From Chloroflexota bacterium (GTDB lineage Bacteria; Chloroflexota; Dehalococcoidia; FW602-bin16): a stretch of DNA of 64,000 nucleotides. Positions 9,610-38,749 of the stretch are shown piece after piece. The DNA is taken from assembly GCA_004297765.1 (NCBI GenBank), contig SCTZ01000023.1:2130-66129 (forward strand), given 5' to 3'. The number at the start of each line of letters is the position of its first letter. Positions within the stretch are counted from its first letter, which is position 1. The notes beneath the pieces are model-generated. The model saw nothing but the letters and a program-made list of their open reading frames with translations. It made no database searches and was not told the origin of the DNA. A program made the position numbers and the translations under genes.

Positions 9610-9636
9610 GCAGGGGCGGCCATGGATGGCCGCCCC
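9610..9636. repeat. Single REP-like hairpin
   Basis: GCA-GGGGCGGCCAT-GG-ATGGCCGCCCC. Confidence 0.6.
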
Positions 9637-9645
9637 GTATTCTTA

Positions 9646-9781: not shown

Positions 9782-9862
9782 TTGGTGCAGTTCACACCAA
9801 GGTCGACTGGGAGCGTGCGGGTGCTCCTTTGCTGGCCATAAACTCCGCGATAGCCTGAATGC

Positions 9863-17063: not shown

Positions 17064-17112
17064 AACCATGGCAACTGCACCTAATGAGGATCACTTGACC
17101 GGGTGGAATGTG

Positions 17113-17141
17113 TTGTAAAGGAAGTTAACCGCATTTACAAT
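17113..17141 (+). promoter_or_regulatory. Putative promoter of the two-component operon
   Basis: TTGTAA-N17-TACAAT, 21 bp before ATG 17163. Confidence 0.45.
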
Positions 17142-17162
17142 GGTGGAGAGGCACACTATAAG

Positions 17163-19397: not shown

Positions 19398-20098
19398 GGA
19401 AAGCTACGATCCTCGTCGTCGACGATGATCCGCACTACGTTCAGCTCGTACGCGTCAACATGCAGGCAAGTGGCTATCGGGTCTTGACGGCCTCCGACGG
19501 TTTGGGCGGACTCAAGATCCTGGAGACCGAACAGCCCGATCTGGTCATCCTGGACATCATGATGCCGTTTCTCGACGGCTATGAGACCTGCCGCCGGATC
19601 CGCGAGTTCTCACTCGTGCCAATCATCATGCTGACGGCACGCGGCGAGCAGGAACACAAAGTACGAGGACTGCGCGCGGGAGCCGACGACTACGTGACCA
19701 AGCCTTTCGGTGCCGATGAGCTCCTGGCCAGGGTGGAGGCCGTGCTGCGGCGCTCCATGGACTCAAGGAAGCCGCAACGGAAAGGCGACTTCACCTGCGG
19801 TGAGCTGACCATCGACTTCGCCCATCATCGCGCGCTGGTAGCCGGCGCCGACGTCGGCCTCTCCGCAACGGAATTCAAGCTGCTGAGTCAGTTGGTTGCT
19901 AACGCGGGATTCGTTGTCTCGCAAGAGGACCTCCTCAGAAAAGTATGGGGGCAAGAATACAGCGACGACCGCGAGATCCTCAAAGTCTGCATCAGTCGCC
20001 TTCGCCAGAAGATCGAGCAGGACCCGCACCATCCACAGTACATCCGCACCCGACGAGGCATTGGCTACAGCTTCGTCGCTTCTCCCCCACACCCGTAA
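19394..20098 (+). CDS. OmpR/PhoB-family response regulator
   Basis: VVDDD, LDIMMP, GADDYVTKPF, winged helix ISRLRQKIE...IRTRRGIGY. ATGA overlap with the kinase. Confidence 0.95.
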   Translation: MRKATILVVDDDPHYVQLVRVNMQASGYRVLTASDGLGGLKILETEQPDLVILDIMMPFLDGYETCRRIREFSLVPIIMLTARGEQEHKVRGLRAGADDYVTKPFGADELLARVEAVLRRSMDSRKPQRKGDFTCGELTIDFAHHRALVAGADVGLSATEFKLLSQLVANAGFVVSQEDLLRKVWGQEYSDDREILKVCISRLRQKIEQDPHHPQYIRTRRGIGYSFVASPPHP

Positions 20099-20773: not shown

Positions 20774-20812
20774 TTGACGTGTGTCAGTACACCGGTAACA
20801 CCGCAGTAGTCC
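20774..20812 (+). promoter_or_regulatory. Possible FNR/CRP-family site plus a degenerate OmpR box upstream of the cytochrome operon
   Basis: TTGAC-GTGT-GTCAG (20774-20787) and GTAACACCGCAGTAGT (20795). Confidence 0.3.
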
Positions 20813-20847
20813 ACCACAGCTCGCAATTCGTTTCGTGGAGGAGAAGT

Positions 20848-23445
20848 ATGGATAACGGGCAACAATTTGGCTCGGGGCAAGGCGCCGTCGGACCACGTCC
20901 GAGGTGTTGGTGGAAAGCACAGCGTTTTCTCCGCCTGGGCGTGATCGTCGTTGCCGGCGTTCTGATCGCGATGGCTATGGCCTGCGGATCGAACTCGGCT
21001 TTGACCAAAGAGACGGGAGCAGGCTCTAACACCAAGCCCGCCTCCTTGTTGCCGACGGTTTCCGCGGGCAAGCAACTTTACCAGCAGCATTGCAGCACCT
21101 GCCACGGGGCAGAGGGCATTCGCATGCCCATAGCTCCTCTACAGTCCAAGGAGTTTCTGGAATCACGCGGGGATGCTACTCTCATTTTGGTTATCAGCGA
21201 GGGCAAAGGCGCTATGCCGGCCTGGGGCAAGCCGAGAGGAGGACCTCTAACCGACGCCCAGGTCCAGAATGTAGTAGCCTACCTCAACTATGCGGCGAGC
21301 CGCGAGAGCTCCAGCGTCAAGGCCGGGGCTGGCCAGCAACTCTACACGGAGTCATGCGCGCGCTGCCACGGAGACAAGGGCGACCGCATCCCCGTCGCCC
21401 CACTCAATGTGAAAGGCTTCCTTGATAGCCGCTCTAACGATAGTCTGGCCACAACTATTGCCGACGGACGGGGACAAATGCCGGGCAATAGCAAGACCAA
21501 GGGCGGTCGATTGACCGATAGTCAGATCCAGGACACGATCTCCTACCTGCGCAACGTGGTCGAGACTAATGTCGCCGCGGCCGCGGGCCGCGGTCGCGAG
21601 ACATATGTTGCCAGTTGTCTGGGCTGTCACGGCGAGAAAGGTGATCGTGTCTCGGGAGTGGCTCTGGCTTCCCTCGAGTTCCTAACATCGCGAGGCGACG
21701 GCAAGCTCATCGCCTCGATCGGCGAAGGCGCCTCAACCATGCCTGGATTCGGCCGTGCCAAGGGTGGATCCCTTGATCCCAGCGACATCGGAGCCATCCT
21801 TGCCTACCTGAAAGCCTGGTCAGGCACCCGGGCCTCCAGCGCACTACCTCTGGCCGGACCGGCCGGCGAGGCGAAGGAGCTCTACTCCAGAAACTGCGCC
21901 CCGTGCCACGGCGAGACGGGGGACAAAGTCTCAGGTATCCAGCTCCGCTCCAAGGGATTCCTCCAGCAGAAGGGCGACACCCTGCTGAAGCAGACTATTG
22001 CCCGTGGCAACGCAAAGGGCATGCCCGCCTGGGGTAAGGAAAGCGGTGGACCCTTCAGCGATGACCAGATCAACGGACTGGTCGCCTATCTAAGCGCCGC
22101 GGCTGCCGACACCGGATCGTCCCCCAGCGCAGGTGCATCTGCCAGTCCCTCGCCTTCTGCGTCTGGTTCTGCTGGCAGCAACGCAAGCGGCACGTCTGGG
22201 CCCTCCTCTTCCGCGGCCCCGGCCGGTGGCGGAGCGATCAGTGCTGATTTGATAGCCAAGGGCAAGGAAGTCTTCACCAAGAACTGTACGGCTTGCCACG
22301 GTGAGACACGGGACCGCATCCCGACCTGCAAGCTTACGGATAAGAGCTGGGTGGAGGAGAAGGGCGACGCTGGTCTCACCAACAGCGTCACCAACGGCAA
22401 GGGCGGCATGCCCGCCTGGGCCGGAAAGCTCTCCACTGACGAAATCAAGGCTGTGGTCGCCTTCCTGAAAGACGCCGTCGGGATCAAGGGGGGCAGCGGC
22501 AGCACTTCAAGCAGCAGCGCCCCAGCCGGCGCCAGCGTCCTCAGTCCCGAGGCGGTGGCCAAGGGCAAAGAGGTCTTCGCCAAGAACTGCACGGCTTGCC
22601 ACGGCGAGACGCGGGATCGCATCCCGACTTGCAAGCTGGCGGATAAGGACTGGGTGACCCAGAAGGGAGAAGCCGGTCTCACCAATAGCGTCACCAACGG
22701 CAAGGGCGGCATGCCCGCCTGGGCCGGCAAGCTCTCTAACGACGAGATCAAATCTGTCGTCAGCTTCCTCCTCGACGCCGTCGGGGCGGGTGGCGGCAGT
22801 GCGTCCGGAGCCTCGTTTTCCGCGGCCCCGGCCAGCGGCGGAGCGATCAGCGCTGACCTGGTGACCAAGGGCAAGGAGGTCTTCACCAAGAACTGCACCG
22901 CTTGCCACGGCGACACGCGGGACCGCATCCCAACTTGCAAGCTGACGGATAAGAGCTGGGTGGAGGAGAAGGGCGACGCCGGACTCACCAACAGCGTCAC
23001 CAACGGCAAAGGCGGCATGCCCGCCTGGGCCGGAAAGCTCTCCACTGACGAAATCAAGGCTGTGGTCGCCTTCCTGAAAGACGCCGTCGGGGCGGGCGGT
23101 GGTGGAGGTGGTGCAGGCACGGCGGCCGGTGCCGCCTCCGCGAGCCCGGTGGCTGCGACCAGCGCGATCGTGGAGCCCACCAAGATAGACACGGCGACGG
23201 GCAAAGCGCTCTTTACGAAGAACTGTCAGATGTGCCACGGGGCCGACGGCCTGCAGCAGAAGGCCTGCCCGCTCGGCTCGAAGGAATGGGTTCAGAACAC
23301 CAGCGCGGAGGGCCTGCGGGCCCGCATCACCAACGGCAAGCCTGCCGCCGGCATGCCAACATGGGGCAAGTCGAAAGGCGGCTCGCTCAGCGACGACGAC
23401 ATCAGCGCGATCATGTTGTACATCGGGACCGAACTGGCCCGGTAA
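20848..23445 (+). CDS. Lipoprotein of eight concatenated class-I (His/Met) cytochrome c domains
   Basis: GGAGGAG RBS, h-region ending AMAC. Heme motifs CSTCH, CARCH, CLGCH, CAPCH, CTACH x3 and CQMCH, each followed by an MP(A/G/T) axial-Met motif and separated by Ser/Gly/Ala linkers. Confidence 0.95.
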   Translation: MDNGQQFGSGQGAVGPRPRCWWKAQRFLRLGVIVVAGVLIAMAMACGSNSALTKETGAGSNTKPASLLPTVSAGKQLYQQHCSTCHGAEGIRMPIAPLQSKEFLESRGDATLILVISEGKGAMPAWGKPRGGPLTDAQVQNVVAYLNYAASRESSSVKAGAGQQLYTESCARCHGDKGDRIPVAPLNVKGFLDSRSNDSLATTIADGRGQMPGNSKTKGGRLTDSQIQDTISYLRNVVETNVAAAAGRGRETYVASCLGCHGEKGDRVSGVALASLEFLTSRGDGKLIASIGEGASTMPGFGRAKGGSLDPSDIGAILAYLKAWSGTRASSALPLAGPAGEAKELYSRNCAPCHGETGDKVSGIQLRSKGFLQQKGDTLLKQTIARGNAKGMPAWGKESGGPFSDDQINGLVAYLSAAAADTGSSPSAGASASPSPSASGSAGSNASGTSGPSSSAAPAGGGAISADLIAKGKEVFTKNCTACHGETRDRIPTCKLTDKSWVEEKGDAGLTNSVTNGKGGMPAWAGKLSTDEIKAVVAFLKDAVGIKGGSGSTSSSSAPAGASVLSPEAVAKGKEVFAKNCTACHGETRDRIPTCKLADKDWVTQKGEAGLTNSVTNGKGGMPAWAGKLSNDEIKSVVSFLLDAVGAGGGSASGASFSAAPASGGAISADLVTKGKEVFTKNCTACHGDTRDRIPTCKLTDKSWVEEKGDAGLTNSVTNGKGGMPAWAGKLSTDEIKAVVAFLKDAVGAGGGGGGAGTAAGAASASPVAATSAIVEPTKIDTATGKALFTKNCQMCHGADGLQQKACPLGSKEWVQNTSAEGLRARITNGKPAAGMPTWGKSKGGSLSDDDISAIMLYIGTELAR
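22230..23095 (+). repeat. Intragenic triplication of a cytochrome c domain (~300-bp period)
   Basis: Three near-identical KGKEVF.KNCTACHG.TRDRIPTCKL...MPAWAGKLS units, differing mostly at synonymous positions. Confidence 0.9.
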
Positions 23446-23503
23446 GCCGTCGCATGAAATGTCGCGATGGGCCGATGACTGTGCGTGGAGGGACACGGGT
23501 TAC

Positions 23504-24265
23504 ATGATGGAGAGCTTACCCCTGGGTGTTTTTGCCGCATTGGAGAGATCGACGCTCTCCTGGGCCATAGCGGCTACCTTTCTGGTGCTGTTGCCTATCT
23601 GGCTGGTATTGTTTATCCGATCACGCGGAGACAGTAGTCTTCAGCCAGGGCGACTTGTCGTCATGATTGCCGGATTAGGCGCTTTGCTGACCATCCCTCT
23701 CTTGGGGGTCGGGGTCTCTCTGCTCCTGCCCGCGAACCCCACCGCGGGATCCAGCGGTCCGGCCGCCGTGAAGGCCGCGGCTTTGCCGGAGGTCACGACG
23801 GCCTCCGCTCAGGGCGAGCAGGAGAAGCCCGCGGCCACGAAGGTCCCCGCTCAGGGCGAACAGGAGAAGCCCGCGGCCACTGCTACCCGAGCGGCCGCGA
23901 CGCCGACGCTGCCGGCTCCATCGCCGACGCGAGTGCCTCCCACGCCGACACAGACGCCATCCCCCAAGCCGGCTATCTCGGCCAGCACCGAGCCAGCCCC
24001 GGACAAATCGAGGGAGCTAGCCGCGAAGGGTCGAACTGTCTTCGAGCGCGAGAGATGTGTGACCTGCCACAGCATCAACGGCAAGGGTGGCGTGATCGCA
24101 CCCGACCTGGCCGGCGTCGGAGAGCGACACTCCGCGCAGTGGATTCTCGATCACTTCAAGGACCCACAGTCTATCAGCCCGGGGACGCTCATGCCGAGGT
24201 TCAACGTGCCCGATGAGGATTTCGAGGCATTGACAGAGTATCTTCTAACACTCAGGCGTCAATAG
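23504..24265 (+). CDS. Membrane-anchored monoheme cytochrome c on a Pro/Ala/Thr linker
   Basis: Two N-terminal TM helices, a 42-bp-period duplication at 23805-23880 (AQGEQEKPAAT), and CVTCH...APDL...PGTLMP. Confidence 0.9.
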   Translation: MMESLPLGVFAALERSTLSWAIAATFLVLLPIWLVLFIRSRGDSSLQPGRLVVMIAGLGALLTIPLLGVGVSLLLPANPTAGSSGPAAVKAAALPEVTTASAQGEQEKPAATKVPAQGEQEKPAATATRAAATPTLPAPSPTRVPPTPTQTPSPKPAISASTEPAPDKSRELAAKGRTVFERERCVTCHSINGKGGVIAPDLAGVGERHSAQWILDHFKDPQSISPGTLMPRFNVPDEDFEALTEYLLTLRRQ

Positions 24266-24356
24266 CGCGGGGTTCCTGAATCCGGAGTTGCCAGCACAGG
24301 GAAAGAGTGATCGGTGGAAAGAAGGTGAAGGTTCCGTGGAAGCAAAAGGAAAGACG

Positions 24357-25316
24357 ATGAACATTGGTGCGCCACAAGCCCGAACAGCTACAGACGTGAT
24401 TTTGACCTTGGGAATTCGTTTCCTGGCGTCTATCCTGTTTATCGTCCTGGTTGGCTTCAGTCTCTACTACGTCGTCGACCGTGCCAGTCTGGTTGGGCCT
24501 TCTCCAGTCGACAATACCATGCGCGAGCTGGAGGAACTAGTCAAGCAAGAGCCGGACAACGCGAATCTGCGGGTGCAGGTGGCCCAGGCCTATACCGAGC
24601 GAGATATCTACGAGGCGGCCCTGGCCCAGTACAAGAGCGCCCTGGAGATCGAGCCAGACCATCAGGCGGCGCTAATTGGCATGGGCAATATCTACCTGGC
24701 TCAGAACAATGACAAAGAAGCTCTGGCCGCATTTCAGAAAGTGGCGGATCTGAACAAGGATAACCCCTACAAGAAGACCTTGCGCCAACTGGAAGCCGTG
24801 TACTACCGATTGGCTCTCATTCAAGAGCGTATTGGCAACCTCGAGGTCGCCCGGTCAAACCTGTTGCAGGCCCTGGACATCGAACGGACGGACTCCGACG
24901 CCTGGTATCTGCTTGGCGAGGTGCAGCGCAAGCAAAACCGTGGACAGGAGGCCGTCGAATCGTACCGAAAGGCTGTTAGTCTGGACCCGCGCTTTACCGA
25001 TGCCTATCGAGCCATGTCGGCCGTCTACACGCAAATGGGTGACCCGGCCATGGCTGAGTACGCGGACGGCATGGTGGCGGTTGCCAACCGCGACTATCAG
25101 CGCGGCTTGACTCTGCTCCAGCGATCCACATCCGCCGCTCCCGACAACGCCGATGCCCTGTGGGGACTGGGGATGTGCTATGAGAACGAAGGCCGCTACC
25201 AGGAGGCCCTGGATGCATACCTGAGCGCGGTCAATTTGGGACAGAACCACATCCTGGCCGAGATGTCCCTCAAGCGGGTGTACGAAAAAATACCAGCAGG
25301 TGAGGTGCAGAAATGA
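24357..25316 (+). CDS. Membrane-anchored TPR protein
   Basis: N-terminal TM helix followed by multiple TPR motifs (ALEIEPDH, AVSLDPRF, AAPDNADALWGLG). Confidence 0.9.
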   Translation: MNIGAPQARTATDVILTLGIRFLASILFIVLVGFSLYYVVDRASLVGPSPVDNTMRELEELVKQEPDNANLRVQVAQAYTERDIYEAALAQYKSALEIEPDHQAALIGMGNIYLAQNNDKEALAAFQKVADLNKDNPYKKTLRQLEAVYYRLALIQERIGNLEVARSNLLQALDIERTDSDAWYLLGEVQRKQNRGQEAVESYRKAVSLDPRFTDAYRAMSAVYTQMGDPAMAEYADGMVAVANRDYQRGLTLLQRSTSAAPDNADALWGLGMCYENEGRYQEALDAYLSAVNLGQNHILAEMSLKRVYEKIPAGEVQK

Positions 25317-26341
25317 CGGTCGAGCAGAGCACAAAGATCGCCCCTCCCCTGCCGCGCCACAGCAGAAGAACTATTGCCATCGGTACATTCCTATTGCTCC
25401 TAGTCGCAACGGGGCTGATCACCTACATCGCGTTCGGCTACATGCTAACACGCAAGCCAATTGCGGCCCTACTTCCGCTGCCGCGTATCTCAGCACTACA
25501 ACAAACGACCCCTCCAATTTATGCGGGAGTGATCAGCAAGCTGGCCGGACCGATGTCCATTGCCGTCAGCCCGGATGGGGAGCGAGTCTACGTCGCCGAG
25601 AGCGATGGAGAGCGGGTTGTGAAAGTCTTCAACCCGTCCGGCAATCTCCTGCAGACCCTGTCCCCACCCAACACCAGCGCGGGACAGCGCAAGCCCATGT
25701 ACATTGCCGTTGACAAGAATGGACGGGTCTTCGTCAGTGACCGCCAACGCCCGGCGGTACATATGTACGATGACAAAGGGGCCTGGATCGGCGTGTACCA
25801 ACCGGAGGAGGCGGAGAAAGACTGGTCTCCGTTGGGTCTCAACGTGCAATCGGATGGCAGCTTGATAGTGACCAACGTCGAGGGCAATGCCCACAGCGTT
25901 CTCGTGTTCGCCAGGAACGAGCGATTGATCCGGCGGATTACCCACCCATTGACGGGAGACAAGCTGTCCTTCCCCAACGGTGCCGTGCAGGATAGCCTCG
26001 GACGAACCTACGTTAGCGACAGTAACAATGGCCGCCTCCTGACCTTTGACTCCACCGGCGCAGTTGTCGGGCAGATCGAATCCACCGATGCTAAGGCCGG
26101 TCTGGCTATGCCTCGCGGAGTGGCTCTGGATGACGACGGCCGGCTCTATGTGGCCGACGCATCAAGCGACCTCGTCAGAGTTTTCCAGACTGGCGAGAAG
26201 TTAGAGTACCTGTACTCTTTTGGCAGCACGGGTGTCGATAGCGGACAGTTCCGGTTCCCGAATGGGGTAACCGTAGACAGCAAGGGGCGGATCTGGGTAG
26301 CGGACTGGGGCAACAACCGAGTCCAGATGTGGCGGTATTAG
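25313..26341 (+). CDS. Membrane-anchored NHL-repeat beta-propeller protein 1
   Basis: TM helix, then repeats P.GVA.D..GR.YV.D..N.R, and FGSTG...GQFRFPNGV. Confidence 0.9.
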   Translation: MTVEQSTKIAPPLPRHSRRTIAIGTFLLLLVATGLITYIAFGYMLTRKPIAALLPLPRISALQQTTPPIYAGVISKLAGPMSIAVSPDGERVYVAESDGERVVKVFNPSGNLLQTLSPPNTSAGQRKPMYIAVDKNGRVFVSDRQRPAVHMYDDKGAWIGVYQPEEAEKDWSPLGLNVQSDGSLIVTNVEGNAHSVLVFARNERLIRRITHPLTGDKLSFPNGAVQDSLGRTYVSDSNNGRLLTFDSTGAVVGQIESTDAKAGLAMPRGVALDDDGRLYVADASSDLVRVFQTGEKLEYLYSFGSTGVDSGQFRFPNGVTVDSKGRIWVADWGNNRVQMWRY

Positions 26342-26487
26342 GTTCCCCCAGCGCGGCGTAGGCCGTTGGGCAGGCGGGACTGAACCGAATGAGAGGGGGT
26401 GAGGCCTCAACAAATAATAGACAGACCGAAGCAGCTATATTCGGAGATGGAAACATTGGACTACACTAGGAAGGAGGGCTGATCAGT

Positions 26488-28095
26488 ATGAGACGGGGAA
26501 TACTCGTGATCATGGGGCTAGCATTTCTGCTGCTCCTGTCCGTGCCGGCCGTAGCCCTGGCGAACGGCGGTCCCCACGGCGACTACAAGGACGCCACGAA
26601 CCTGACCGACAAATGCGCCGGCTGTCATCGGCTTCACCAGGGTCTCAGCCAAGGCAAGTTGCTGAAAGCTGAGAGCCAGTACGCTCTGTGTCTCACCTGT
26701 CACAACGGCGCCGGATCCGTCCTGAACGTTCTCGACGGCGTGCGCGTGGCGGGCGTGGGCTACGACCCCGCTGCTTCGCTGCTCACTCTCGACAGCGGCG
26801 CGGTACCCCGCGACAACAGCACGACCAACATGTACCTGAGCCTGGCGCCCTACGGCGACCTTTCGACTTCGCCCGGGAAGAATGGCTATATCACTCTTCG
26901 CATCAAGAACAAGACCGGCAGCGGCATCACGGCCAGCCTGGCCGTGACGGACACGCTCCTGCCGGGAGCCATTGCGTCGGACTTCGACGCGTCGGACTTC
27001 GTATCCGCGACCACGAGCACGGCGAGCCCGACCAATGATGCGGAGAACCCGGGCAACCCCACCAGCACGGTGATCAATAGCGTGAGCGTGCTCGCCAACG
27101 ACGTCGCCTACGTTCGTCTGCGGGTCAAGCCGACCGGCACCGCTACGGCGGGCGACAGCATCCTGAGCGCCATCACGGTCAGCGCCGGTGGTGAGAACGC
27201 CGTCGTCAAGGCCCAGACCAGGGTCGGCGATCAGGCGCTGCCCATCCTCAACGGTGGCGGCTTCAACTACGTCGGCACCAAGGTCACCACCTCTCGCCAC
27301 AACGCAAACCCGGCGGACAATACGCTGAGCCCGTGGGGCTTCGGTGGACAGAACCAGTCCCCCAACTACGCGGCCGGCGGCATGGGAAAGGGTGCCAACA
27401 CGGGCGAAAACCCGAACACCCTCTCCGAGCCCCTGCAGTGCACCAGTTGCCACAACCCGCACGGTACCAGCAACTACCGCCTGCTGAAGCAGAGCATCAA
27501 CGGCGTGACCGTCGACGTCAAAGCGTACAACGACACGACCAACGCCATGGTGATCGACGAGGGAGCGCGCGGTCTCGAAGCCGGAGCGCCCGCTGATAAG
27601 TACACCAAGGAGTACTACGCCAGCTACTCCAGCAACAGCCAGGGCTTCGCCAGCTTCTGCGGCGCCTGCCACACGGCCTATCCGTCCGACGGGGCAAGCC
27701 TGGGCGTCGCCAGCAACTCGGCCTTCGGCTCGGTGATGCACTATCGCCACCGCACGGAGATGCCGTATTCAAACTGGACGAACCCGAACACGGGGCCCAC
27801 GCAGAACCCGGAGACCAACCCGATTACGGGCACCGATGGACCCGGCGGCGCTCCTAAGCTCTTCCCGACGCTGCGGCTGGCCAGCAAGGACAGCACCAGC
27901 CTCAACAACCACGTGACCTGTCTGACGTGCCACCGCGTTCACGGCACCAGCGCAGATATGTCCGGCTATGCCCTCAAGAAGCAGTTTGGGGGACTGGCCG
28001 ACAACGACATCACGCCGTCGCAGATCGACGAGAGCCGCACCACGCTGCTCTATACCGACAACCGCGGCATGTGCGAAGCCTGTCACCAGTGGTAG
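26488..28095 (+). CDS. Secreted hexaheme cytochrome c, OmcS/CwcA-like motif layout, with an inserted Ig-like domain
   Basis: Signal peptide VALA-NGGPHG. Heme motifs CAGCHRLH, CLTCH, CTSCHNPHG..NYR, CGACH, CLTCHRVHG and terminal CEACH, with GGGF..H between hemes 2 and 3. Strong AGGAAGGAGG RBS. Confidence 0.85.
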   Translation: MRRGILVIMGLAFLLLLSVPAVALANGGPHGDYKDATNLTDKCAGCHRLHQGLSQGKLLKAESQYALCLTCHNGAGSVLNVLDGVRVAGVGYDPAASLLTLDSGAVPRDNSTTNMYLSLAPYGDLSTSPGKNGYITLRIKNKTGSGITASLAVTDTLLPGAIASDFDASDFVSATTSTASPTNDAENPGNPTSTVINSVSVLANDVAYVRLRVKPTGTATAGDSILSAITVSAGGENAVVKAQTRVGDQALPILNGGGFNYVGTKVTTSRHNANPADNTLSPWGFGGQNQSPNYAAGGMGKGANTGENPNTLSEPLQCTSCHNPHGTSNYRLLKQSINGVTVDVKAYNDTTNAMVIDEGARGLEAGAPADKYTKEYYASYSSNSQGFASFCGACHTAYPSDGASLGVASNSAFGSVMHYRHRTEMPYSNWTNPNTGPTQNPETNPITGTDGPGGAPKLFPTLRLASKDSTSLNNHVTCLTCHRVHGTSADMSGYALKKQFGGLADNDITPSQIDESRTTLLYTDNRGMCEACHQW

Positions 28096-28117: not shown

Positions 28118-28147
28118 GGGAGGGAGAAGTAAATTCTTCTCCCTCCC
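28118..28147 (+). terminator. Stem-loop after the hexaheme gene (partial terminator or mRNA stabiliser)
   Basis: GGGAGGGAGAAG-TAAATT-CTTCTCCCTCCC, with no U-tract. Confidence 0.55.
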
Positions 28148-28356
28148 CACCCGGCTTCCTGTGCGTGGACTTTCCACCGAAGCACGGTGCAAAGCCCGCT
28201 CACGGAGCGGCAAAGAGGGAAGGACAGCCGCATCTTTGCTGCTTTCAGGCGGAAGCCAAACACTATTCTATCACGTAGAGGCGCCTCCTGGCATTGGAGA
28301 CCCGCCGGAGGCGCTATCCGGTTCTACCCAAGACAGAAGGGGGAAACGTCGTTCCA

Positions 28357-29538
28357 ATGAGGGCACCCGGGCAACCCGAATCCACTACGCACGCCGGGAG
28401 ACAGCCGAATCAGCGACCGCGATCGGACCGGGAGGATGCAAACCCCGCTCGCTCGGTCGCGCTCCCCTGGCACACGCGGGCGCTTTGCAGGTCCCTCGTG
28501 CGCGCTCACTGCCCTCTCCTCAGCCAGCTTTTTCCTCCACGGGCCCTGGTGTTCGCGCTGGCGGTGATTCTCGCCATCTCTGTTGTCATACTTGCACAGT
28601 CTCTTGGGTTGGCCTCGGGCAGGGAGACTCATGGACCGAGTTCTCTTCCAACCCCCGGCGAAGGTGGCGAGATGCGCTTCCTCTTCAGCCTCACAGGACG
28701 CATCGATCAGTATCTGGATACCCCTCTGGCCGTCACCGTGAGCCGGCGTGGGCTGGTCTACGTGGCCGATGGGGGTTACCGGTCCGTCCAGGTATTCTCA
28801 CCCGACGGCGTCTGGCAGCGAAGCATAGGTCGCGCGATCGTGGCAGAGCCTCGGCCGGGTGATCTGGTCTATCCGCTCGGCGTGGCCGTGGACGATCAGG
28901 ACAATTGCTATGTCTCAGACAACGTGACCGGGCGCATCTCTGTTTTCGACTCAACCGGTGCTTTCCTTCGCTACTTCGCCGAGGACGAGGCTGGTGCCAA
29001 GCCCTTCGGCTTGCCTGCCGGTCTCTTCTTCCGCAACGGTTTGCTCTACGTGAACGACGTCGGCAACCACCAGGTTATGGCGCTGCGGTCCGACGGCACC
29101 ATAGAGCGCGTGTTCGGACGGGGACGTGGGAGTGAGACCGGGCAGATGCAGTACCCCAATTTCTCCTGGGTGGACGAGTGGGGACGCGTCTACGTGGCCG
29201 ATTCCAACAACAACCGTATCCAGATCTTTGGCTCCGACGGCGCTTTCCAGGGCGTGTTTGCGAGCGGACACGAGGGTCCCGAGACCGGCGTGATGCGCGG
29301 AATCGCCCTGGACTCCCGCGGCGACATGCACGTGGTCGCCACGATGGAGCATCGCGTGTTGGTCTTCGACCAGGACGGACAGTTCATGTATTCGTACGGA
29401 CGTGAGGGAGATGGTCCGGGTCAACTGGGCTTTCCGAACGGATTGGCCGTCGCCGGCGACCAGGTGTACGTGGCGGACCGGGCCAACGGCCGGGTTCAGG
29501 TCTGGTCTCTGGGCGCCAAACTAGAAAATACTCGATAA
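28357..29538 (+). CDS. Membrane-anchored NHL-repeat beta-propeller protein 2
   Basis: TM helix LVFALAVILAISVVILA, then six NHL-like blades (YPLGVAVD, YVADSNNNRIQIF, FPNGLAV...YVADRANGRVQV). The start position is uncertain. Confidence 0.9.
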   Translation: MRAPGQPESTTHAGRQPNQRPRSDREDANPARSVALPWHTRALCRSLVRAHCPLLSQLFPPRALVFALAVILAISVVILAQSLGLASGRETHGPSSLPTPGEGGEMRFLFSLTGRIDQYLDTPLAVTVSRRGLVYVADGGYRSVQVFSPDGVWQRSIGRAIVAEPRPGDLVYPLGVAVDDQDNCYVSDNVTGRISVFDSTGAFLRYFAEDEAGAKPFGLPAGLFFRNGLLYVNDVGNHQVMALRSDGTIERVFGRGRGSETGQMQYPNFSWVDEWGRVYVADSNNNRIQIFGSDGAFQGVFASGHEGPETGVMRGIALDSRGDMHVVATMEHRVLVFDQDGQFMYSYGREGDGPGQLGFPNGLAVAGDQVYVADRANGRVQVWSLGAKLENTR

Positions 29539-29542
29539 TTCG

Positions 29543-32395
29543 GTGACCATGATGGGAAGCCATCGACGCTTGCACGTATTCATCTTTCATTATTTCGCTG
29601 CCATGGTCGCGGTGGCGCTGGGCTTCTTGGTGCCGCTGGCGCCACTCGCGGTTCCGGTCGTCTACGCGGCCGAAACCCATTATCTCCACGCCGCCGCCGT
29701 CACGCTGGGAAGCACCACCTACGGAACGGTCAACACCACCGGCCTCGCGGGCACCTTGACGGAGGCCTCCGCCAACATTAACCAGAGCACCTGGCAGACC
29801 TTCTCCTTCGGCGGAAAGAACATGTGGGTCTCCGACGCAACGCCGTCGGGGGCCACCTGGACCCTAACGGGCAGTTGGAGCTTCACCATCTTCACTCGAC
29901 AGACCCAATCCGAAAGGGCCCAGTTCAACTTTCGCGCCCGCATCTACAAGCTCGACACGAACAACAGCGCCACGCTGCTGGCCACGTCCGGACAGAGCGG
30001 GCAGTTGAAGCCCTTCAACACCTATGGCAGCAGCATCACCTGGTCCCACAACCTGGCTAGCACCGTGCTCAGCGCGGGCGAGCGCTGGGGCGTGCAATTC
30101 CAGGCGCTGGCCGACCGCGACGAAGCCAGTCAGTTCGCCTACCTGGGCTTCGACGTCTCCGCACGAAACAGCTCGGTGACCGTTCCCAACTCCAAGCCCG
30201 TGGCGCCGACATCCACGCCAACGTCCACAGCTACCTCGACTCCGGCGAGCACGGACACCGCAACTGCCACGGCCACCGCTACCGACACCGCGACCGCGAC
30301 CGCGACCGCGACCGACACCGCCACGGCGACCGACACAGCCACCGTCACCGCCACCGCAACCGACACGCCACCAGGTCCCACGGCAACGCCGACCAGCACG
30401 CCTTTGCCCACCTCCACGCCAACCCGCACGGCGACACCCGCGGCCAGCTCCACCTCAGCCGCCACAGCCACGGCAACGTCTACTGCCACTCCGACCTCGA
30501 CCGCCACTGACACGGCAACCGCCACACCGACACTCACCGCCACGTCCACGGCCACAGCTACGTCCACCAGCACACCCATCGTACCGGAGTTGGATTATCT
30601 GCACGCTATGACGATGACAATCGGGAGCAGTACCTTCAGGACGGCCAACACCAGCCTCCCGGCCGGCACGCTAGCCGAGGCCTCGACGTCGGTCAACAAA
30701 GACGCTTGGCAGAACTTCGCGTATGCAGCCACCAACATGTGGATCTCCGACGCCACGCCCGATGGCACGACGTGGGTGCTGACCGGTCAATGGACGTTCC
30801 GGGTCCACGTCCGGCAATCCGTCTCGGGACCCCGTTTCTGGTTCCGTGCCCTCCTTTACAGGATCAGCATCGGCGGCACGGCGACCCTGATGGCCACCAC
30901 CGCCCAGACGAATCGGATCGACACCGTGGGTACCGCCTACGCCGGTACGGTAACCAACCCCATCACGTGGAACTACACGCTGGCCACCCAGGTGCTGAAC
31001 CCTGGCGAATCCTGGGGCGTGCAGATCCAGGTGTTGGCCGACCAGAATACTGGCGGCAGCGTCTACCTGGGTTTCGACTCGACGGACCAGAACAGCAACA
31101 TCACCGTCCCTAGCGGCAGGCCCGCGGCGGTCGGTCCTACGTCAACGGCAACGGCCACCACCACGCCGGGCACGCCCACGGTCACGCCGACACCCACCAC
31201 TACCGGAGTCGGCACGCCCGGCCCGGCCACGCCAACGCCGCAGAATCCCGCCCATAACGGGAACGTTTCCTGGAGAGACGGTTTGCCGAGCATCTGCGCG
31301 GGATGCCACCGCGTGCATACCTCGCCGGCCTCCAAGTCGCTCCAGGCTCGTTGGCCGGAAGAAGCTACCTGCTTCGTCTGCCACGACGGCAGCGGGGCGC
31401 CGAACATCAAGGCCCAGTTCGACAAGACCTACAAGATGCCTATAACCGCCACGGCCGGCATCCACTCCACCGCGGAGTACACGACCAAGGATCCCGCCAG
31501 TTTCTCTGGCACCAGCCGCCACGTGGAATGCACCGACTGCCACAACCCGCACTATGCCGGGAAGGTGACCCATATCAACGGCACCAACTACGCCGCCGGT
31601 CCGCAGCAGGGAGTTTGGGGCGTGGCCGTGAACAACACGGCCGCATGGACGGCTCCCGAGTACTCCACGGTCAACCAGGTGACCCACGAGTACCAGGTAT
31701 GCTTCAAGTGCCATTCTTCGTGGGCCTACGGCACCAACCCGCCCCTTTCGCCCAGCGGCGGCTTCTCCCAGACCAACCAGCCAAAGGAGTTCAACACCCT
31801 CAACCCGGCCTACCATCCGGTGGAGGCGCCGGGCAAGAACCCGTTCACGGGGGCCAACGGCAGCTATGCCAGCTCGCTCATCAACGGCTTCAACCCCGGC
31901 AGTACCATGTTCTGCACCGATTGCCATCGCAGCGAGACTCCAACCGAGCTCAAGGGTCCCCACGGCTCGCAGTCGCCCTTCATTCTGCAGGGTAACTGGG
32001 ACCGCACCACCGGGCAAAACCCCGGCAACCGAGGCATGCCCAGCACATCCAACCATCTGTGCTTCAAGTGCCACGACTACGATCGCTACACGAACTTCGA
32101 CGCCAACCGCAACAACGGCTGGCAGACCGGGTTCTCGCAGAATGGAGGCGAGAACCTGCACGTGCGCCATGTTGGCAACGGGCGCAACAAGCTCAACAAC
32201 GATCAACCGATCGTTTGCATGGATTGCCACGTGGCCGTTCCTCACGGCTGGCAGCGCGAACATCTGCTGGGCTTCGACGGCGACGGCGCGCCCTACATCA
32301 ACCGCATTGGCGGTCTCAGCACCATCGACAGTTGGGCCAGCAGCGGGAACTGGGATCGTCCAAACTGCCAGACGGCCATGGGCAATTGCAGGTAG
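29543..32395 (+). CDS. Secreted heptaheme cytochrome c with two beta-sandwich domains and Thr-rich stalks
   Basis: Signal peptide ending VYA, two HYLHA/DYLHA...YLGFD repeats and (TA/TP)n linkers. Heme motifs CAGCH, CFVCH, CTDCH, CFKCH, CTDCH, CFKCH and CMDCH. Confidence 0.9.
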   Translation: MTMMGSHRRLHVFIFHYFAAMVAVALGFLVPLAPLAVPVVYAAETHYLHAAAVTLGSTTYGTVNTTGLAGTLTEASANINQSTWQTFSFGGKNMWVSDATPSGATWTLTGSWSFTIFTRQTQSERAQFNFRARIYKLDTNNSATLLATSGQSGQLKPFNTYGSSITWSHNLASTVLSAGERWGVQFQALADRDEASQFAYLGFDVSARNSSVTVPNSKPVAPTSTPTSTATSTPASTDTATATATATDTATATATATDTATATDTATVTATATDTPPGPTATPTSTPLPTSTPTRTATPAASSTSAATATATSTATPTSTATDTATATPTLTATSTATATSTSTPIVPELDYLHAMTMTIGSSTFRTANTSLPAGTLAEASTSVNKDAWQNFAYAATNMWISDATPDGTTWVLTGQWTFRVHVRQSVSGPRFWFRALLYRISIGGTATLMATTAQTNRIDTVGTAYAGTVTNPITWNYTLATQVLNPGESWGVQIQVLADQNTGGSVYLGFDSTDQNSNITVPSGRPAAVGPTSTATATTTPGTPTVTPTPTTTGVGTPGPATPTPQNPAHNGNVSWRDGLPSICAGCHRVHTSPASKSLQARWPEEATCFVCHDGSGAPNIKAQFDKTYKMPITATAGIHSTAEYTTKDPASFSGTSRHVECTDCHNPHYAGKVTHINGTNYAAGPQQGVWGVAVNNTAAWTAPEYSTVNQVTHEYQVCFKCHSSWAYGTNPPLSPSGGFSQTNQPKEFNTLNPAYHPVEAPGKNPFTGANGSYASSLINGFNPGSTMFCTDCHRSETPTELKGPHGSQSPFILQGNWDRTTGQNPGNRGMPSTSNHLCFKCHDYDRYTNFDANRNNGWQTGFSQNGGENLHVRHVGNGRNKLNNDQPIVCMDCHVAVPHGWQREHLLGFDGDGAPYINRIGGLSTIDSWASSGNWDRPNCQTAMGNCR

Positions 32396-32450: not shown

Positions 32451-32571
32451 GCCCAGGGCTGAAGCCACTGGGCTGAGTCAACGAAGCCCGCCGAGGCGGG
32501 CTGACTACCGCGCCCAGCCCCTCGGAAGGGGCTTCGTTGTCTCAGCCCGCTCGCTTTAGCGGCGGACGGGC
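32451..32571. repeat. Composite hairpin element (GGGCTGAAGCC-type REP-like)
   Basis: GGGCTGAGTCAACGAAGCCC...GGGCTTCGTTGTCTCAGCCC inverted arms with nested hairpins. Confidence 0.7.
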
Positions 32572-32584
32572 GGTGGACAACAGG

Positions 32585-34162
32585 ATGCAACCAAGGACAA
32601 TTGGTACAAGAATGCTCAAGGCGGTATCGACGCAAACAGCAATGGCGAACCAACAAGCAACACGGTCGCGGGTCACACACATCGCAGCTCTCCTCCGCCT
32701 GTTGCGCTCGCGCGAGCTGGCGCTGGTATTGCTGGGGGTGATCCTGGTTGGCGCCGTCTCCGGCACCCTGGTGCCGCAGAAGGCTCTGGTCTCACCCGCC
32801 GATTTTCAGAATTGGCAGACGGAGCACGCCCGATGGGCCGAGCTCGCCAACGGCCTCGGTCTCACCCGTGTGTACAACTCCTGGTGGTTCCTCACGCTCC
32901 TGGGACTGCTCTTCCTGAGTCTGCTGGTCTGCACAGTCTCCAACTGCCGGCGGACCTGGCGTATCGATCGGCATCGCCACCGTGAGGAGTGCGACGTTCC
33001 TCGCTCCGTCAGGAGGGACGGAGGGCACCTGACCATCCAGATGAGCGACACGCAACAGCCCCAACCGACTTCAGACGCCCATCCCCTCGTCCACGCCCCC
33101 TTCCAGCGAGCCTCGGTCGTGTTGCGTCAGGTGGGCTACCGCGTGCGTCCGGTCGCCAGCGGAAGCGCCCTCTTTGCCGGAAAGCGCCGCTACGGAATCT
33201 GGGGCTCGGCGATATTTCATCTTGGCCTCATGATCGTCCTACTGGGCGGCGCCTATAGCGGGGGCGGCAAGATGGCCGGCTACTTCGAGCTGGCGGAGGG
33301 TCAGACCTTCACGGAGCAACGCGGTGGCTACCTGCAAATCGATGAGGGACCGCTCTTTCGAGAGCAGCATGCAAGCTTCCGGCTACGCCTGGACCAACTG
33401 CACACGCGCTACTGGGACAACGGCACGCTGCGCGAGATGTCGAGCGCCGTGACCGTGCAAGCTCCTTCGGGCGAGACCAGAACGGCCCTGCTTGGCCCGG
33501 GACGACCGCTGAGCTTCTTGGGCGCGTCTATCTACCAGGCCAACCAGCATGGCTTCGCCGTCCTCCTCTCACTGAAGGATGCCGCGGGCAACACAATCAG
33601 CTCAGGTTTCGTCAATTTCGCAACACCGTCCGAGCCCACCCATCCCGCGACCAACCGCTTTCCTCTCCCCGGGGTCTCCCTCCAAGCCGAGGCGGACTTC
33701 TATCCGGCCCCACAGGCAGAAGCCCTCGACGTGGAGAACTGGTCGCAGGCGCGGCCGGACGAGTCCTGGCTGTATCTGTTCCTGCGTGATGAACAGGAGC
33801 GACTGGTTTTCCAGGGGCCGTTGGCCCTCGGTGACAGCATAACGTTCAATGGATACGCCTTGAGCTTTAAGCAGGTCTCCCGATGGGCAGGTTTCCCCGT
33901 GGTGCGAGATCCGGGTCTACCCATAATCTTCACCGGGTTCGGCCTGTGCATCCTGGGAGCCGCCATTATCTACCTCTGGGTCCCCAGGCGGATCTGGGTC
34001 TGGGTCGAGCGCACGGCAGAGGGGAACCGCGCGCTCTGCATCGGCGGTCGGGCCGACAGGTATCAAGCATCGATGGATGAAGAGGTAGCGGAGCTCGCGA
34101 CACGGATGATACTCTTGCACGATAGTTCCTTCGTGATTGGCCAGACCGAGTCGGTCGCCTGA
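32585..34162 (+). CDS. resB: Cytochrome c biogenesis protein ResB/Ccs1 (system II)
   Basis: LRSRELALVLL..GTLVPQ, LGLTRVYNSWWF..SLLVCT, FHLGL, RDPGLPIIFTG...PRRIW. The start position is uncertain. Confidence 0.9.
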   Translation: MQPRTIGTRMLKAVSTQTAMANQQATRSRVTHIAALLRLLRSRELALVLLGVILVGAVSGTLVPQKALVSPADFQNWQTEHARWAELANGLGLTRVYNSWWFLTLLGLLFLSLLVCTVSNCRRTWRIDRHRHREECDVPRSVRRDGGHLTIQMSDTQQPQPTSDAHPLVHAPFQRASVVLRQVGYRVRPVASGSALFAGKRRYGIWGSAIFHLGLMIVLLGGAYSGGGKMAGYFELAEGQTFTEQRGGYLQIDEGPLFREQHASFRLRLDQLHTRYWDNGTLREMSSAVTVQAPSGETRTALLGPGRPLSFLGASIYQANQHGFAVLLSLKDAAGNTISSGFVNFATPSEPTHPATNRFPLPGVSLQAEADFYPAPQAEALDVENWSQARPDESWLYLFLRDEQERLVFQGPLALGDSITFNGYALSFKQVSRWAGFPVVRDPGLPIIFTGFGLCILGAAIIYLWVPRRIWVWVERTAEGNRALCIGGRADRYQASMDEEVAELATRMILLHDSSFVIGQTESVA

Positions 34163-34229: not shown

Positions 34230-35072
34230 ATGGACCCGCTTAATCTGTCAGCGTATCTCTACTGGGCCGCGGTGACTCTTTACGCGATCGCTACCGCGGC
34301 CTTCATGGTTGGGCTGTTCTGGCGCCGGCACGACGTGATCGTGTGGACGACCTGGCTGGTGGCCGGCGCTCTCCTGCCACATGGCGCGGCCATCTTGCTC
34401 CGCTGGATAATTGTCGGGCATGGGCCGTACATCAACCGCTACGAGGTTCTCTCATCCGACGTGTGGGTGGGTCTGGCGGCCTTCCTCGCGCTTCAGCTCC
34501 GCTTTCCGCGCCTGCGGCTGGTCGGGGCGGCCATCGCGCCCATCGCGCTGTTGCTCATGGGAATCTCCGCCCTGTCGACAGCCGACGTGGAGCCACTCCC
34601 CCCATCCCTGCGAAGCTATTGGCTTGTGATCCACGTGGGGTTCGCCAAGCTAGCCTTCGGCAACATCCTGCTCGCTTTCGGACTTGGCGTGCTCTTCCTG
34701 CTCAAAGAGCGCTCGCAACGCACGAGAGCGAACCATCATTTCTACGAGCGATTGCCAGTACTTGCCCGAATGGACGAGCTGAGCTACCGATTCACGGGAC
34801 TGGGGTTCGTCTTCCTGGCCGTCATGATCATGTCAGGCTCCATCTGGGCCAACGACGCCTGGGGCAATTATTGGAGCTGGGACGCCATCGAGACATGGTC
34901 TCTAGCCACCTGGCTCTTCTACGGCATCAACCTACACCTGCGGGCCACCTATCGCTGGCGCGGTCCACGAGCGGCCTGGCTGACCATTGCGACCTTCGCC
35001 TTCATGGCAATCACCCTGAAGGGCGTGGCGTACATAACTCCAGGCGCACACGTTGAGTACCTGGCGAAGTAA
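34230..35072 (+). CDS. ccsA: Cytochrome c biogenesis protein CcsA/ResC (system II heme lyase)
   Basis: GHGPY.NRYE, LRSYWLVIHV, WWD domain GSIWANDAWGNYWSWDAIETWS, and a terminal H. Confidence 0.95.
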   Translation: MDPLNLSAYLYWAAVTLYAIATAAFMVGLFWRRHDVIVWTTWLVAGALLPHGAAILLRWIIVGHGPYINRYEVLSSDVWVGLAAFLALQLRFPRLRLVGAAIAPIALLLMGISALSTADVEPLPPSLRSYWLVIHVGFAKLAFGNILLAFGLGVLFLLKERSQRTRANHHFYERLPVLARMDELSYRFTGLGFVFLAVMIMSGSIWANDAWGNYWSWDAIETWSLATWLFYGINLHLRATYRWRGPRAAWLTIATFAFMAITLKGVAYITPGAHVEYLAK

Positions 35073-35086
35073 AGAAGAAGCGCTAA

Positions 35087-35219
35087 CTGAGTCGTTCCGT
35101 AAGTCAGTACCACGTTGCGGAGACGGCGCAGTTGGACCGCCGCCGTAGAACTCCGCGGTCGCCTGAGGCGACCGCAGCGGTCTTTTCCGACAGGATGCCG
35201 CACTTGAGGAACGACGCAC
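35087..35219. mobile_element. MITE-like element, copy 2 (133 bp) with TAA target duplication
   Basis: TAA|CTGAGTCGTTCCGTAAG...CTTGAGGAACGACGCAC|TAA, colinear with 9646-9781. Confidence 0.75.
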
Positions 35220-38200: not shown

Positions 38201-38749
38201 TGCCATCTCCGCTAGCGCAGCCGTATCCTGCTTGCCCGTCACGCTCAGGCGCATGATGGGAAAAGCGTTCAGATCCACTTCGGAGACCTTCGGAGCGAGA
38301 GACCCGGCCGGAAGCTGGGCGCTGGCCAGGTTACGATTGATAGTGTCGACGGCTCGCTTGAGATCTGTGCCATACGCGAACTGAGCTACCACGACGGAGA
38401 CGCCCGCTTCAGAGATGGAATCCAGCGACTTGAGTCCAGGCAGACCGGCCACCGCGCTCTCGACGGGAACGGTCACGTCGTTCAAAACGGAGTCGGGATC
38501 AGCGGTGGGGTAGATGGTCATCACGGTGACCACGGGGATATCCATGTTGGGCAGCAACTCGATCTTGAGCTGGCGCGCCGCCCAGATCCCTCCCGCGATG
38601 ACGAGCATCACGACCATCAGCGTGACCGCGCGCTTGGCCAAGGCCAGATCGATAATGGCTCCCAGCATGCGGCTGAGCGCGCCGATCTCCGCCGTGCTAT
38701 ATCCGTGATCGGCGCCCGCGGGCGGAAGATACTGATCCTTGCGCGACAT
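35219..38749 (-). CDS. RND (AcrB/SwrC-like) transporter with an inserted LysM domain
   Basis: ELLPNMDIP, GRVVDDAIVVLENI, STLTTVAVFLP, GIVVTNAVVL, RVRPILMT. LysM YQVKPGDTLSSIAQRFYG...NPNSIRPGMTLIIP at 37680-37828. An alternative start is ATG 38668. Confidence 0.95.
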   Translation of the reverse strand: MSRKDQYLPPAGADHGYSTAEIGALSRMLGAIIDLALAKRAVTLMVVMLVIAGGIWAARQLKIELLPNMDIPVVTVMTIYPTADPDSVLNDVTVPVESAVAGLPGLKSLDSISEAGVSVVVAQFAYGTDLKRAVDTINRNLASAQLPAGSLAPKVSEVDLNAFPIMRLSVTGKQDTAALAEMAERQLVPQLGAVDGVSSVQITGSAARRVVVSLKADQLKARNVTVSQVVSSLRANNVAAPSGGIPEGGLDLPVRVGNQLLSLQDVENLIVLPSASAMGGAGGLSGVPQSWRPPSPDSSEPTRQPDEVYQVKPGDTLSSIAQRFYGDAGAFQRIVDANKAQLSNPNSIRPGMTLIIPAALTTSTTPGAPASPPASIGSGTGQVPGLPAGGQIPGMAIPQMPSIPQIYIRDLGQVALGTAEDASLTRTNGQNSVGVLIFKTRDANTVRVADAVNHKIAEIKSGLGDAGVVVIEDQSTAVRESISGLEREGLLGGLFAVLVIFLFLFNARSTMVTAVSIPVSILVAFLLMGWRDLSLNIMTMGGLTVSLGRVVDDAIVVLENIYRHVQRGESPMRAASAGAREVSAAITISTLTTVAVFLPLGFVGGIVGQVFTPFALTVTFALLASLAVALTIIPVLATFLVRPGRGRLEAGARSRSPQSPASTPRLHAICSPGVSWALRHRRATLGVAAVLFVGSLWTLPFIGTSFLPSSSEKLLQVTVEMPPGTNLHATEAVAEQVENQLSNLKEVEVFQTTIGNTGSLMGMTGIGAGNASTADIFVRLVSSADVHGVAESLRQSLSSIDSAASIVVSPLETMEGGSSKLQVTIVGDDYEQVSDTANRAVSALGQIEGLANVRSDLAVSKPEVSVKVKPDAALQHGLTAIQVVQAVRDMITGQQATKMTLDGKPIDVYVQVNAADKDSLDKLKALTVGTINPVPLSEIADVRSVDGPVRITRHNQARAATISGDVLKADTGAVSSAARQMMNDLDKPAGVRVQVGGVAEQMMEGFSNLGIALAVAVGLVYLVMVATMGSLSEPLVILASLPLASVGALLALLLTGRSLGMSAMIGMLMLVGIVVTNAVVLLDLVGQLRRRGFGVREALIEGGRTRVRPILMTAAATILALTPLMLGFGQGSLIASELATVVVGGLLTSTLLTLLVVPVVYSLVQELTERWGSSES

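Follow-up and report, generated by a model that had tools for sequence, protein, structure and literature searches.

The window, that is, the whole stretch of 64,000 nucleotides (nt) of the Chloroflexota contig SCTZ01000023.1 analysed here, contains on its forward strand a gene for a c-type cytochrome with six heme-binding motifs. The view that the product is Sec-exported and belongs to the family of OmcS, the nanowire subunit of Geobacter sulfurreducens (GSU2504; structures 6EF8 and 6NEF), is well supported, its core being homologous to OmcS both in sequence profile and in fold. Within this core, an additional immunoglobulin (Ig)-like domain was present between the second heme motif and a GGGF motif. 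The gene stands in a cluster of redox and accessory genes on the same strand, and the positions of all features are collected in Table 1.

The six CxxCH motifs of the hexaheme protein start at residues C43, C68, C318, C391, C478 and C529. The open reading frame (ORF) and the order of its motifs were as the sequence-only reading, an earlier model-made annotation of the same DNA, had described them: GGPHG, CAGCHRLH, CLTCH, GGGF, H271, CTSCHNPHGTSNYR, CGACH, YRH421, CLTCHRVH and CEACH. The count of eight histidines outside the motifs, out of 14 in total, was equally confirmed (H30, H50, H271, H325, H418, H421, H475 and H485). Across 145 six-heme relatives all six CxxCH motifs were invariant or nearly so, and six of the eight non-motif histidines were kept in 143 to 145 sequences (H30, H50, H271 and H485 in all of them, H325 in 144 and H421 in 143); H418 was found in 50 relatives and H475 in one. 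The motif order is therefore more than a chance arrangement. A histidine at +3 follows hemes 1, 3 and 5 and none follows hemes 2, 4 and 6. The six conserved non-motif histidines would provide one distal ligand per heme, enough for bis-His ligation of all six.

Export is indicated by the Sec-type signal peptide with its A-L-A site, which was called by inspection of the sequence and not with a predictor, and by the presence of ResB and CcsA genes in the cluster. Residues A25, G28, P29, H30 and G31, at and just beyond the cleavage site, were identical in the 67 aligned sequences of the clade to which the protein belongs.

Table 1. Coordinates of the hexaheme cytochrome gene, of its motifs and expression signals, and of other genes in the window; the last line gives positions on other contigs of the source genome. 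Lengths are in amino acids (aa), nt or base pairs (bp).
Feature	Position	Strand	Description or basis
OmcS-family hexaheme c-type cytochrome, coding sequence	26488..28095	+	535 aa, ATG start, stop codon included
Sec-type signal peptide, residues 1-25 (MRRGILVIMGLAFLLLLSVPAVALA, then NGGPHG)	26488..26562	+	basic n-region, hydrophobic core, A-L-A cleavage site
H30 in GGPHG, putative distal heme ligand	26575..26577	+	145/145 relatives
Heme 1 motif CAGCHRLH, H50 at +3	26614..26637	+	aligned to OmcS CEGCHTMH, chain residues 9-16
Heme 2 motif CLTCH	26689..26703	+	motif count; Pfam Paired_CXXCH_1 over residues 41-74
Inserted region, residues 88-252; beta-sandwich core ~110-250 (Ig-like, CARDB/NEW3/FixG_C-type)	26749..27243	+	structure model, alignment
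GGGF motif, residues 256-259	27253..27264	+	aligned to OmcS GGDF
H271, invariant non-motif His	27298..27300	+	aligned to His of OmcS KGHN
Heme 3 motif CTSCHNPHGTSNYR, +3 His = H325	27439..27480	+	OmcS profile alignment, His count
Heme 4 motif CGACH	27658..27672	+	motif count
YRH, nearly invariant non-motif His H421	27742..27750	+	143/145 relatives
Heme 5 motif CLTCHRVH, +3 His = H485	27919..27942	+	OmcS profile alignment, His count
Heme 6 motif CEACH	28072..28086	+	motif count
Shine-Dalgarno site AAGGAGGG, 10 nt between GGAGG and ATG	26471..26478	+	read from sequence
Perfect 12-bp GC-rich hairpin, 22 nt past the stop codon, without T tract	28118..28147	+	folding of 80-nt stretch
Histidine kinase and response regulator	17103-20098	+	Pfam scan
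888-aa protein, eight class-I (cbb3/FixP-type) cytochrome c domains	20779-23445	+	Pfam, sequence
Membrane-anchored monoheme cytochrome c, hydrophobic segments, long Pro/Thr/Ala-rich linker	23459-24265	+	Pfam, sequence
TPR protein, N-terminal membrane anchor	24288-25316	+	Pfam TPR families
NHL-repeat beta-propeller, N-terminal hydrophobic anchor, directly upstream	25313-26341	+	Pfam NHL 5e-31
Second NHL-repeat propeller, downstream; true start may be ATG at 28357	28294-29538	+	Pfam NHL 7e-22
950-aa multiheme protein	29543-32395	+	sequence, Pfam, hhalign
ResB, system II cytochrome c maturation	32537-34162	+	Pfam ResB 4e-63
CcsA, system II cytochrome c maturation	34230-35072	+	Pfam Cytochrom_C_asm 2e-41
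RND (AcrB-type) transporter with LysM domain at residues 308-356	35219-38749	-	
2142-aa ORF with Ig-like domains	40145-46573	-	
Insert-less paralogues in the source genome (loci L080-L086)	C79:7221-8237; C199:4083-5240, 8580-9782; C126:26452-27729; C58:40928-44573		

The relationship with OmcS was visible at the level of sequence profiles. A profile of the clade (A2, 67 sequences) had OmcS (6ef8_A) as its top match in the PDB with an E-value of 4.2e-9, and a profile of 108 insert-less relatives (A3) gave the same top match with an E-value of 1.8e-21 (79.9 bits). The A3 alignment formed one single stretch, in which positions 41-322 of the 328 in the profile faced residues 7-406 of the 407 in OmcS. 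The next matches of A3 were MtrA (E 7.9e-12), OmcE (7tfs_A, E 7.2e-9) and 9yuq_N (E 2.4e-5). The aligned pairs were CAgCHRaH/CEGCHTMH, GGGF/GGDF, skH/KGH and CtsCHdPHG...YRiL/CSSCHDPHG...YRIL, then, on the C-terminal side, CltCHvaHG/CLSCHRAHA and the final CxxCH facing CNKCH. Residue H50 aligned with the OmcS histidine located at +3 of the heme-1 motif (chain residue 16 in 6EF8). The parallel with OmcS drawn in the sequence-only reading thus corresponds to real homology over nearly the full OmcS length. The structural match on which that reading had made itself depend was also found: in a Foldseek search with an insert-less model, 6ef8_A was the first of two matches, a weak one (E 5.9e-3). The fold match covered the whole OmcS chain including both ends, with about 22% identity in the structural alignment. 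The domain collections were less specific. Pfam gave generic multiheme signatures (Paired_CXXCH_1, E 8e-16), and in NCBIfam solely the paired-CXXCH domain scored above its cut-off.

The protein shares with OmcS the six collinear CxxCH motifs, a first motif of the CxxCHxxH type, secretion and an adjoining NHL-repeat gene, together with GGGF in place of GGDF, CHxPHG..YR(I)L, CLxCHRxH and a terminal CxxCH. It differs by the beta-sandwich of about 150 aa in the loop from heme 2 to GGGF, by a host that does not belong to the Desulfuromonadota, and by a cluster containing TPR, class-I cytochrome and system II maturation genes, with no porin-cytochrome genes among the 13 ORFs scanned. In addition, OmcS is a nanowire subunit, whereas the present protein is known here from sequence and models.

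Homologues of OmcS outside Geobacter are already known. A distant one in the Coriobacteriales shows 28% identity and all six CxxCH motifs (Front Microbiol 2020, PMC7399161), and many of the relatives found here are likewise encoded in Coriobacteriia and other Actinomycetota loci; no inserted domain is described in the accessible part of that article, and its 500-aa length cut-off would exclude proteins like this one. A BLAST survey of RefSeq also covers OmcS homologues outside Geobacter, and the words "Chloroflex", "NHL" and "insertion" are absent from its text as far as accessible (PMC10954620); a review places OmcS homologues in diverse bacteria and archaea (PMC12954529). The tetraheme nanowires of the OmcE type (7TFS) are also made of secreted multiheme subunits and gave weak matches with the A3 profile; they possess an inter-subunit His-heme bond (PMC9473688), and in the bundled OmcE of Desulfuromonas soudanensis variable surface loops mediate the bundling (PMC13712944). 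Text searches of the literature, supplements excluded, retrieved no article that describes a domain inserted in an OmcS homologue, a TPR-NHL-hexaheme module or OmcS homologues in Chloroflexota.

The extra piece, announced in the sequence-only reading as a beta-rich, Ig-like insertion of about 170 aa, was present at the expected place and was somewhat smaller, about 150 aa, for a spacing of 183 aa between the heme-2 motif and GGGF. It was modelled as a beta-sandwich, with strands between residues 109 and 246 and block means of the predicted local distance difference test (pLDDT) mostly of 85-95, lower at residues 121-130 and 171-190. The Foldseek matches of the full model in this region were generic Ig-like or E-set domains (the N-terminal domain of GH123, PapD/ASH/MSP domains and the Vpr fibril), and Atlas clusters carrying NPCBM_assoc/NEW3, CARDB and FixG_C domains were matched with template modelling (TM) scores of 0.61-0.68. 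The likeness to these E-set domains of bacterial surface proteins is one of fold and names no function: residues 88-252 alone matched no Pfam family, including CARDB, NEW3 and FixG_C, even at E <= 10, and an Atlas feature search with the insert returned unnamed clusters whose scores (0.77 and 0.75) were too low to be useful.

Both insert-bearing and insert-less homologues exist, as appeared when the relatives were checked on this point. The spacing between the second CxxCH and GGGF was counted in the 167 of 221 proteins that have both motifs, a sample enriched for close relatives of the protein: it was below 40 aa in 96 proteins, 40-79 aa in 20, 80-139 aa in 4, 140-219 aa in 40 (including the present one) and at least 220 aa in 7, with a maximum of 437 aa. 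The motif pattern mis-scored one protein (P0003) as short-spaced. In an alignment of 20 sequences the insert block, which lies ahead of an invariant GGGF, was found in the protein and its near relatives, was missing from the members of 384-415 aa and was larger in three others (P0010, P0013 and P0027), so that among homologues the site may be empty, single, doubled or tripled, with 0 to about 400 extra residues. The insert also evolves fast. For relatives with an overall identity of 40-54% to the protein, the value was 16-31% in the insert, 63-77% in the N-terminal core and 53-68% in the C-terminal core. Given this tolerance of extra residues and this rate of change, the site is most simply explained as a surface-exposed loop. 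In a tree of the core columns, the insert-bearing proteins fell into a clade of 57 tips (support 0.80) in which 12 insert-less members were nested, a topology compatible with a single gain followed by losses as well as with several gains.

The strong ribosome-binding site and the downstream stem-loop invoked in the sequence-only reading are both present. The Shine-Dalgarno site was the strongest among the nine cluster starts inspected, apart from that of CcsA, which was also good. The 80-nt stretch containing the hairpin had a minimum free energy (MFE) of -32.9 kcal/mol (z -2.67), and one of 200 shuffled sequences was as stable; a terminator scan did not flag the hairpin. The gene is set apart by spacers of 146 nt upstream and 198 nt downstream (or 261 nt, should the ATG at 28357 be the true start of the NHL gene), whereas gaps of 4-22 nt or overlaps were seen between the other genes inspected in the cluster. 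The hairpin was then considered in the 78 best homologous loci: 67 of them were entered, 11 having been left out by eye as their matches ended near the end of the locus, and 55 of these 67 were assessable, with the stop codon and 120 nt downstream. When a best 50-nt hairpin with an MFE of at most -22 kcal/mol was required, a hairpin was found within 120 nt of the stop codon in 46 of the 55 loci as compared to 47 of 165 windows taken at random from these loci. The median MFE was -33.4 kcal/mol for the loci and -19.9 kcal/mol for the controls, with a Mann-Whitney p of 6e-16 which is overstated, the controls being mostly coding and the loci related to one another. These hairpins reached -43 kcal/mol per 50 nt in loci of Chloroflexota, Actinomycetota and "Eubacteriales", and their sequences were mutually unrelated. 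In a same-strand cluster, a strong ribosome-binding site together with a 3' hairpin is the pattern that would be expected of a subunit needed in excess. A sigma-70-like site at position 26389-26418 (9 of 12 positions) was not relied on, five such sites being present in the region for 2.4 expected.

The genes around the hexaheme gene make up what is, with good support, an extracellular-electron-transfer cluster. The domains of the neighbouring proteins were identified with Pfam, and their hydrophobic anchors and linkers were read from the sequence. The 950-aa multiheme protein carries at its N-terminus two repeated, beta-rich domains, each about 170 aa long and separated by Thr/Ala/Pro-rich linkers, and its C-terminal 390 residues matched the A3 profile over hemes 1-5 (hhalign probability 99.2%, E 2.9e-19). 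It is a second, related OmcS-type cytochrome of the cluster, decorated at its N-terminus. Class-I cytochrome c domains are usually high-potential carriers, and for this reason the role of the cluster might lie in electron uptake or in a chain linked to oxygen or nitrate, either instead of metal reduction or alongside it.

Part of this neighbourhood was retained elsewhere. When the neighbours in the window were searched by tblastn in the best 78 loci, an NHL gene was found in 65, an upstream TPR gene in 43 and a gene of the 950-aa type in 23. The NHL gene was upstream on the same strand in 61 of the 78 loci, at less than 1000 nt in 35, and all 35 had a TPR gene further upstream. It was downstream on the same strand in six loci, including four of the six best-scoring ones (L001, L002, L003 and L005). 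A same-strand NHL gene was not seen in 14 of the 78, several of which have short flanks. In Geobacter, the NHL-repeat protein GSU2505 is encoded just downstream of omcS, and it has been proposed that the assembly or expression of OmcS depends on it (PMC9070056). The NHL genes on both sides of the hexaheme gene recall this arrangement, the likeness being one of repeat type and position.

A word-indexed search returned 90 relatives, of which the closest were full-length proteins of 74% and 66% identity, with the same insert and from other assemblies; the few bearing a name were annotated "cytochrome c3 family protein" and came from Chloroflexi or Dehalococcoidia metagenome bins. An exhaustive search counted 791 cluster representatives with an E-value of at most 1e-3, and 335 with one of at most 1e-10. 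Among those listed, the majority were 300-450 aa long and matched the protein in two pieces, approximately residues 1-89 and 253-534. A search for loci confirmed 470 of 659 pattern matches as relatives. The best 78 loci belonged to Chloroflexota (Anaerolineae, Dehalococcoidia, Thermoflexia, Ardenticatenaceae and Caldilineales), to Actinomycetota (Coriobacteriia, Thermoleophilia and Anaerosomatales) and to bins labelled "Eubacteriales". Of 301 sampled genomes of the phylum, 13 had a match at E <= 1e-10, in 12 of 172 genera and including the source genome, whose match was the only one to span the profile in one piece.

The source genome also contained at least seven further hexaheme paralogues devoid of the insert, whose open frames measure 331-456 aa. 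One of them lies inside a 1490-aa open frame on contig C58, where three copies are in tandem. Among the proteins returned by the exhaustive search, two giant cytochromes of 1509 aa (P0154) and 1880 aa (P0164) contain 32 and 42 CxxCH motifs, respectively. Over long stretches of them, CxxCHxxH and plain CxxCH alternate in a regular manner, as they do in hemes 1-6 of the present protein, and six-heme units of about 255 aa are repeated. Both give the impression of OmcS-like modules joined covalently into chains.

We favour, as somewhat better than an even proposition, the reading in which the protein is a subunit of an OmcS-type nanowire carrying an Ig-like decoration. The OmcS family supplies the hexaheme nanowire of Geobacter, in which all six hemes are bis-His-ligated and the histidine of heme 5 is contributed by the adjoining monomer (PMC7096707). 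In the model that we propose, hemes would be attached outside the cytoplasmic membrane and subunits would then stack head to tail as in OmcS. Residue H50 would supply the missing ligand to heme 5 of the next subunit, forming a continuous heme chain. The equivalent inter-subunit ligand in OmcS is presumably His16, the residue with which H50 aligns. If the ligation topology of OmcS is conserved, H50 would be left without a heme in its own chain and heme 5 would need the histidine of a neighbour, which would imply head-to-tail association. The Ig-like domain would project sideways, where it could hold on to the cell wall, minerals, partner cells or further filaments; the adhesive or bundling role that the sequence-only reading gave it is plausible. 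Assembly or anchoring may be the task of the TPR and NHL proteins, and the strong ribosome-binding site and 3' hairpin may raise the yield of the subunit above that of its operon neighbours.

Several observations weigh against this reading, in which polymerisation, and the way the insert would face with respect to an interface between subunits, are suppositions. OmcS was absent from the results of a single-sequence PDB search (phmmer), in which the best match was unrelated (E 0.42), and a Foldseek search with the full model had beta-sandwich matches alone among the rows listed. No specific NCBIfam family was found for the protein, 11 other weak matches being far under their cut-offs. The mean pLDDT of the full model was 71.5, a middling confidence, and the heme-1 segment (residues 34-60, including H50) was below 50, as it was in the insert-less model. 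The significance of the downstream hairpins is, as said above, overstated. The six conserved distal histidines fit a closed monomer equally well, a histidine at +3 is also found in non-filament cytochromes with the paired CXXCH domain, and no filaments are known from the close OmcS paralogues of Geobacter. A homodimer prediction for an insert-less relative (P0019, residues 23-384, from the A3 set, with four hemes) scored 0.04 and 0.26 for a mark of 0.42, which speaks neither for nor against binding.

The strongest alternative we regard as a serious possibility, although at less than even probability. The protein would be an OmcS-family hexaheme cytochrome that does not polymerise, acting as a monomer or small oligomer at the cell surface; its insert would dock to the cell wall, to the S-layer or to the NHL and TPR proteins, and electrons would pass between the membrane-anchored cytochromes and an external acceptor or donor. 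The OmcS homology and the cluster context fit this proposal as well, and all six hemes can be closed by conserved histidines within one chain. The protein has no anchor of its own, and the beta-sandwich, whose fold matches include S-layer (SbsC, Sap), WxL-interacting, RbmA and intimin/invasin domains, could provide retention. The insert-less paralogues also point in this direction, such a redundancy being typical of diversified redox carriers. However, H50 is kept in every six-heme relative and aligns with the OmcS histidine that we take to bridge the subunits, the fold match extends to both ends of the OmcS chain, and the ribosome-binding site and conserved 3' hairpin suit a major structural subunit.

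It is improbable that the insert is a ligand- or substrate-binding module comparable to the beta-barrel domains I and III of MtrC and OmcA (for flavins, humics or mineral surfaces) in a terminal reductase or oxidase whose specificity would be set by the variable domain. A weak C-terminal match to the Pfam model of MtrC/MtrF domain II/IV (PF22113, 34.1 bits for a cut-off of 30) goes in this sense, as do the location of the insert between hemes 2 and 3 and the fact that it is swapped or multiplied among relatives and fast-evolving, as expected of a specificity module. However, the six-heme protein falls outside the MtrC/OmcA/MtrF decaheme family, with 18.9 bits against the NCBIfam OmcA/MtrC model (TIGR03507, cut-off 209), the insert matches generic E-set sandwiches and not MtrC beta-barrels, and no conserved Cys pair or cofactor motif was present in the inserts of the 20-sequence alignment. 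A non-functional ORF (one arisen by chance, a pseudogene or a chimeric assembly having created the insert) is hardly credible in spite of an estimated contamination of 8.95% in the genome bin, as the frame is uninterrupted and comes with both a Shine-Dalgarno site and a signal peptide, the insert folds confidently in the model, and the existence of 90 homologues, with two full-length insert-bearing ones in other assemblies, contradicts it.

The favoured reading of a decorated OmcS-type subunit can be widened into a more tentative proposal, to which we give well under an even chance. Each subunit of a domain-decorated nanowire would carry an outward, rapidly diversifying Ig-like domain (two or three in some relatives), and the TPR and NHL module, shared with the omcS locus of Geobacter, would serve assembly or anchoring in a host whose relatives belong to lineages described as single-membraned. 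If this is true, the NHL propeller would be an ancient and general nanowire assembly factor and the heme-2-to-GGGF loop a natural display site on conductive wires.

The structures of cytochrome nanowires come from only a handful of organisms, mostly Geobacter and relatives. The OmcS fold is widespread in genomes of Chloroflexota, Actinomycetota and "Eubacteriales", where it travels with TPR and NHL-propeller genes, and one loop of the OmcS-type core accepts whole folded domains. Should these proteins polymerise, this loop would offer a natural place for domain display, of use in the engineering of functionalised nanowires, the NHL and TPR partners would be candidates for the machinery by which OmcS-type filaments are assembled or anchored, and long-range electron transfer along cytochrome wires would extend to lineages unstudied for such transfer. 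Should they not polymerise, the family would still mark unstudied surface redox proteins for extracellular electron exchange.

Two other genes of the window, on the opposite strand beyond CcsA, call for a remark. The RND transporter has a LysM domain inserted in its sequence. Further on, the 2142-aa ORF contains four CARDB domains in addition to He_PIG, BACON_2 and MG2 Ig-like domains, and corresponds to a giant surface protein made from beta-sandwiches of the same kind as the cytochrome insert.

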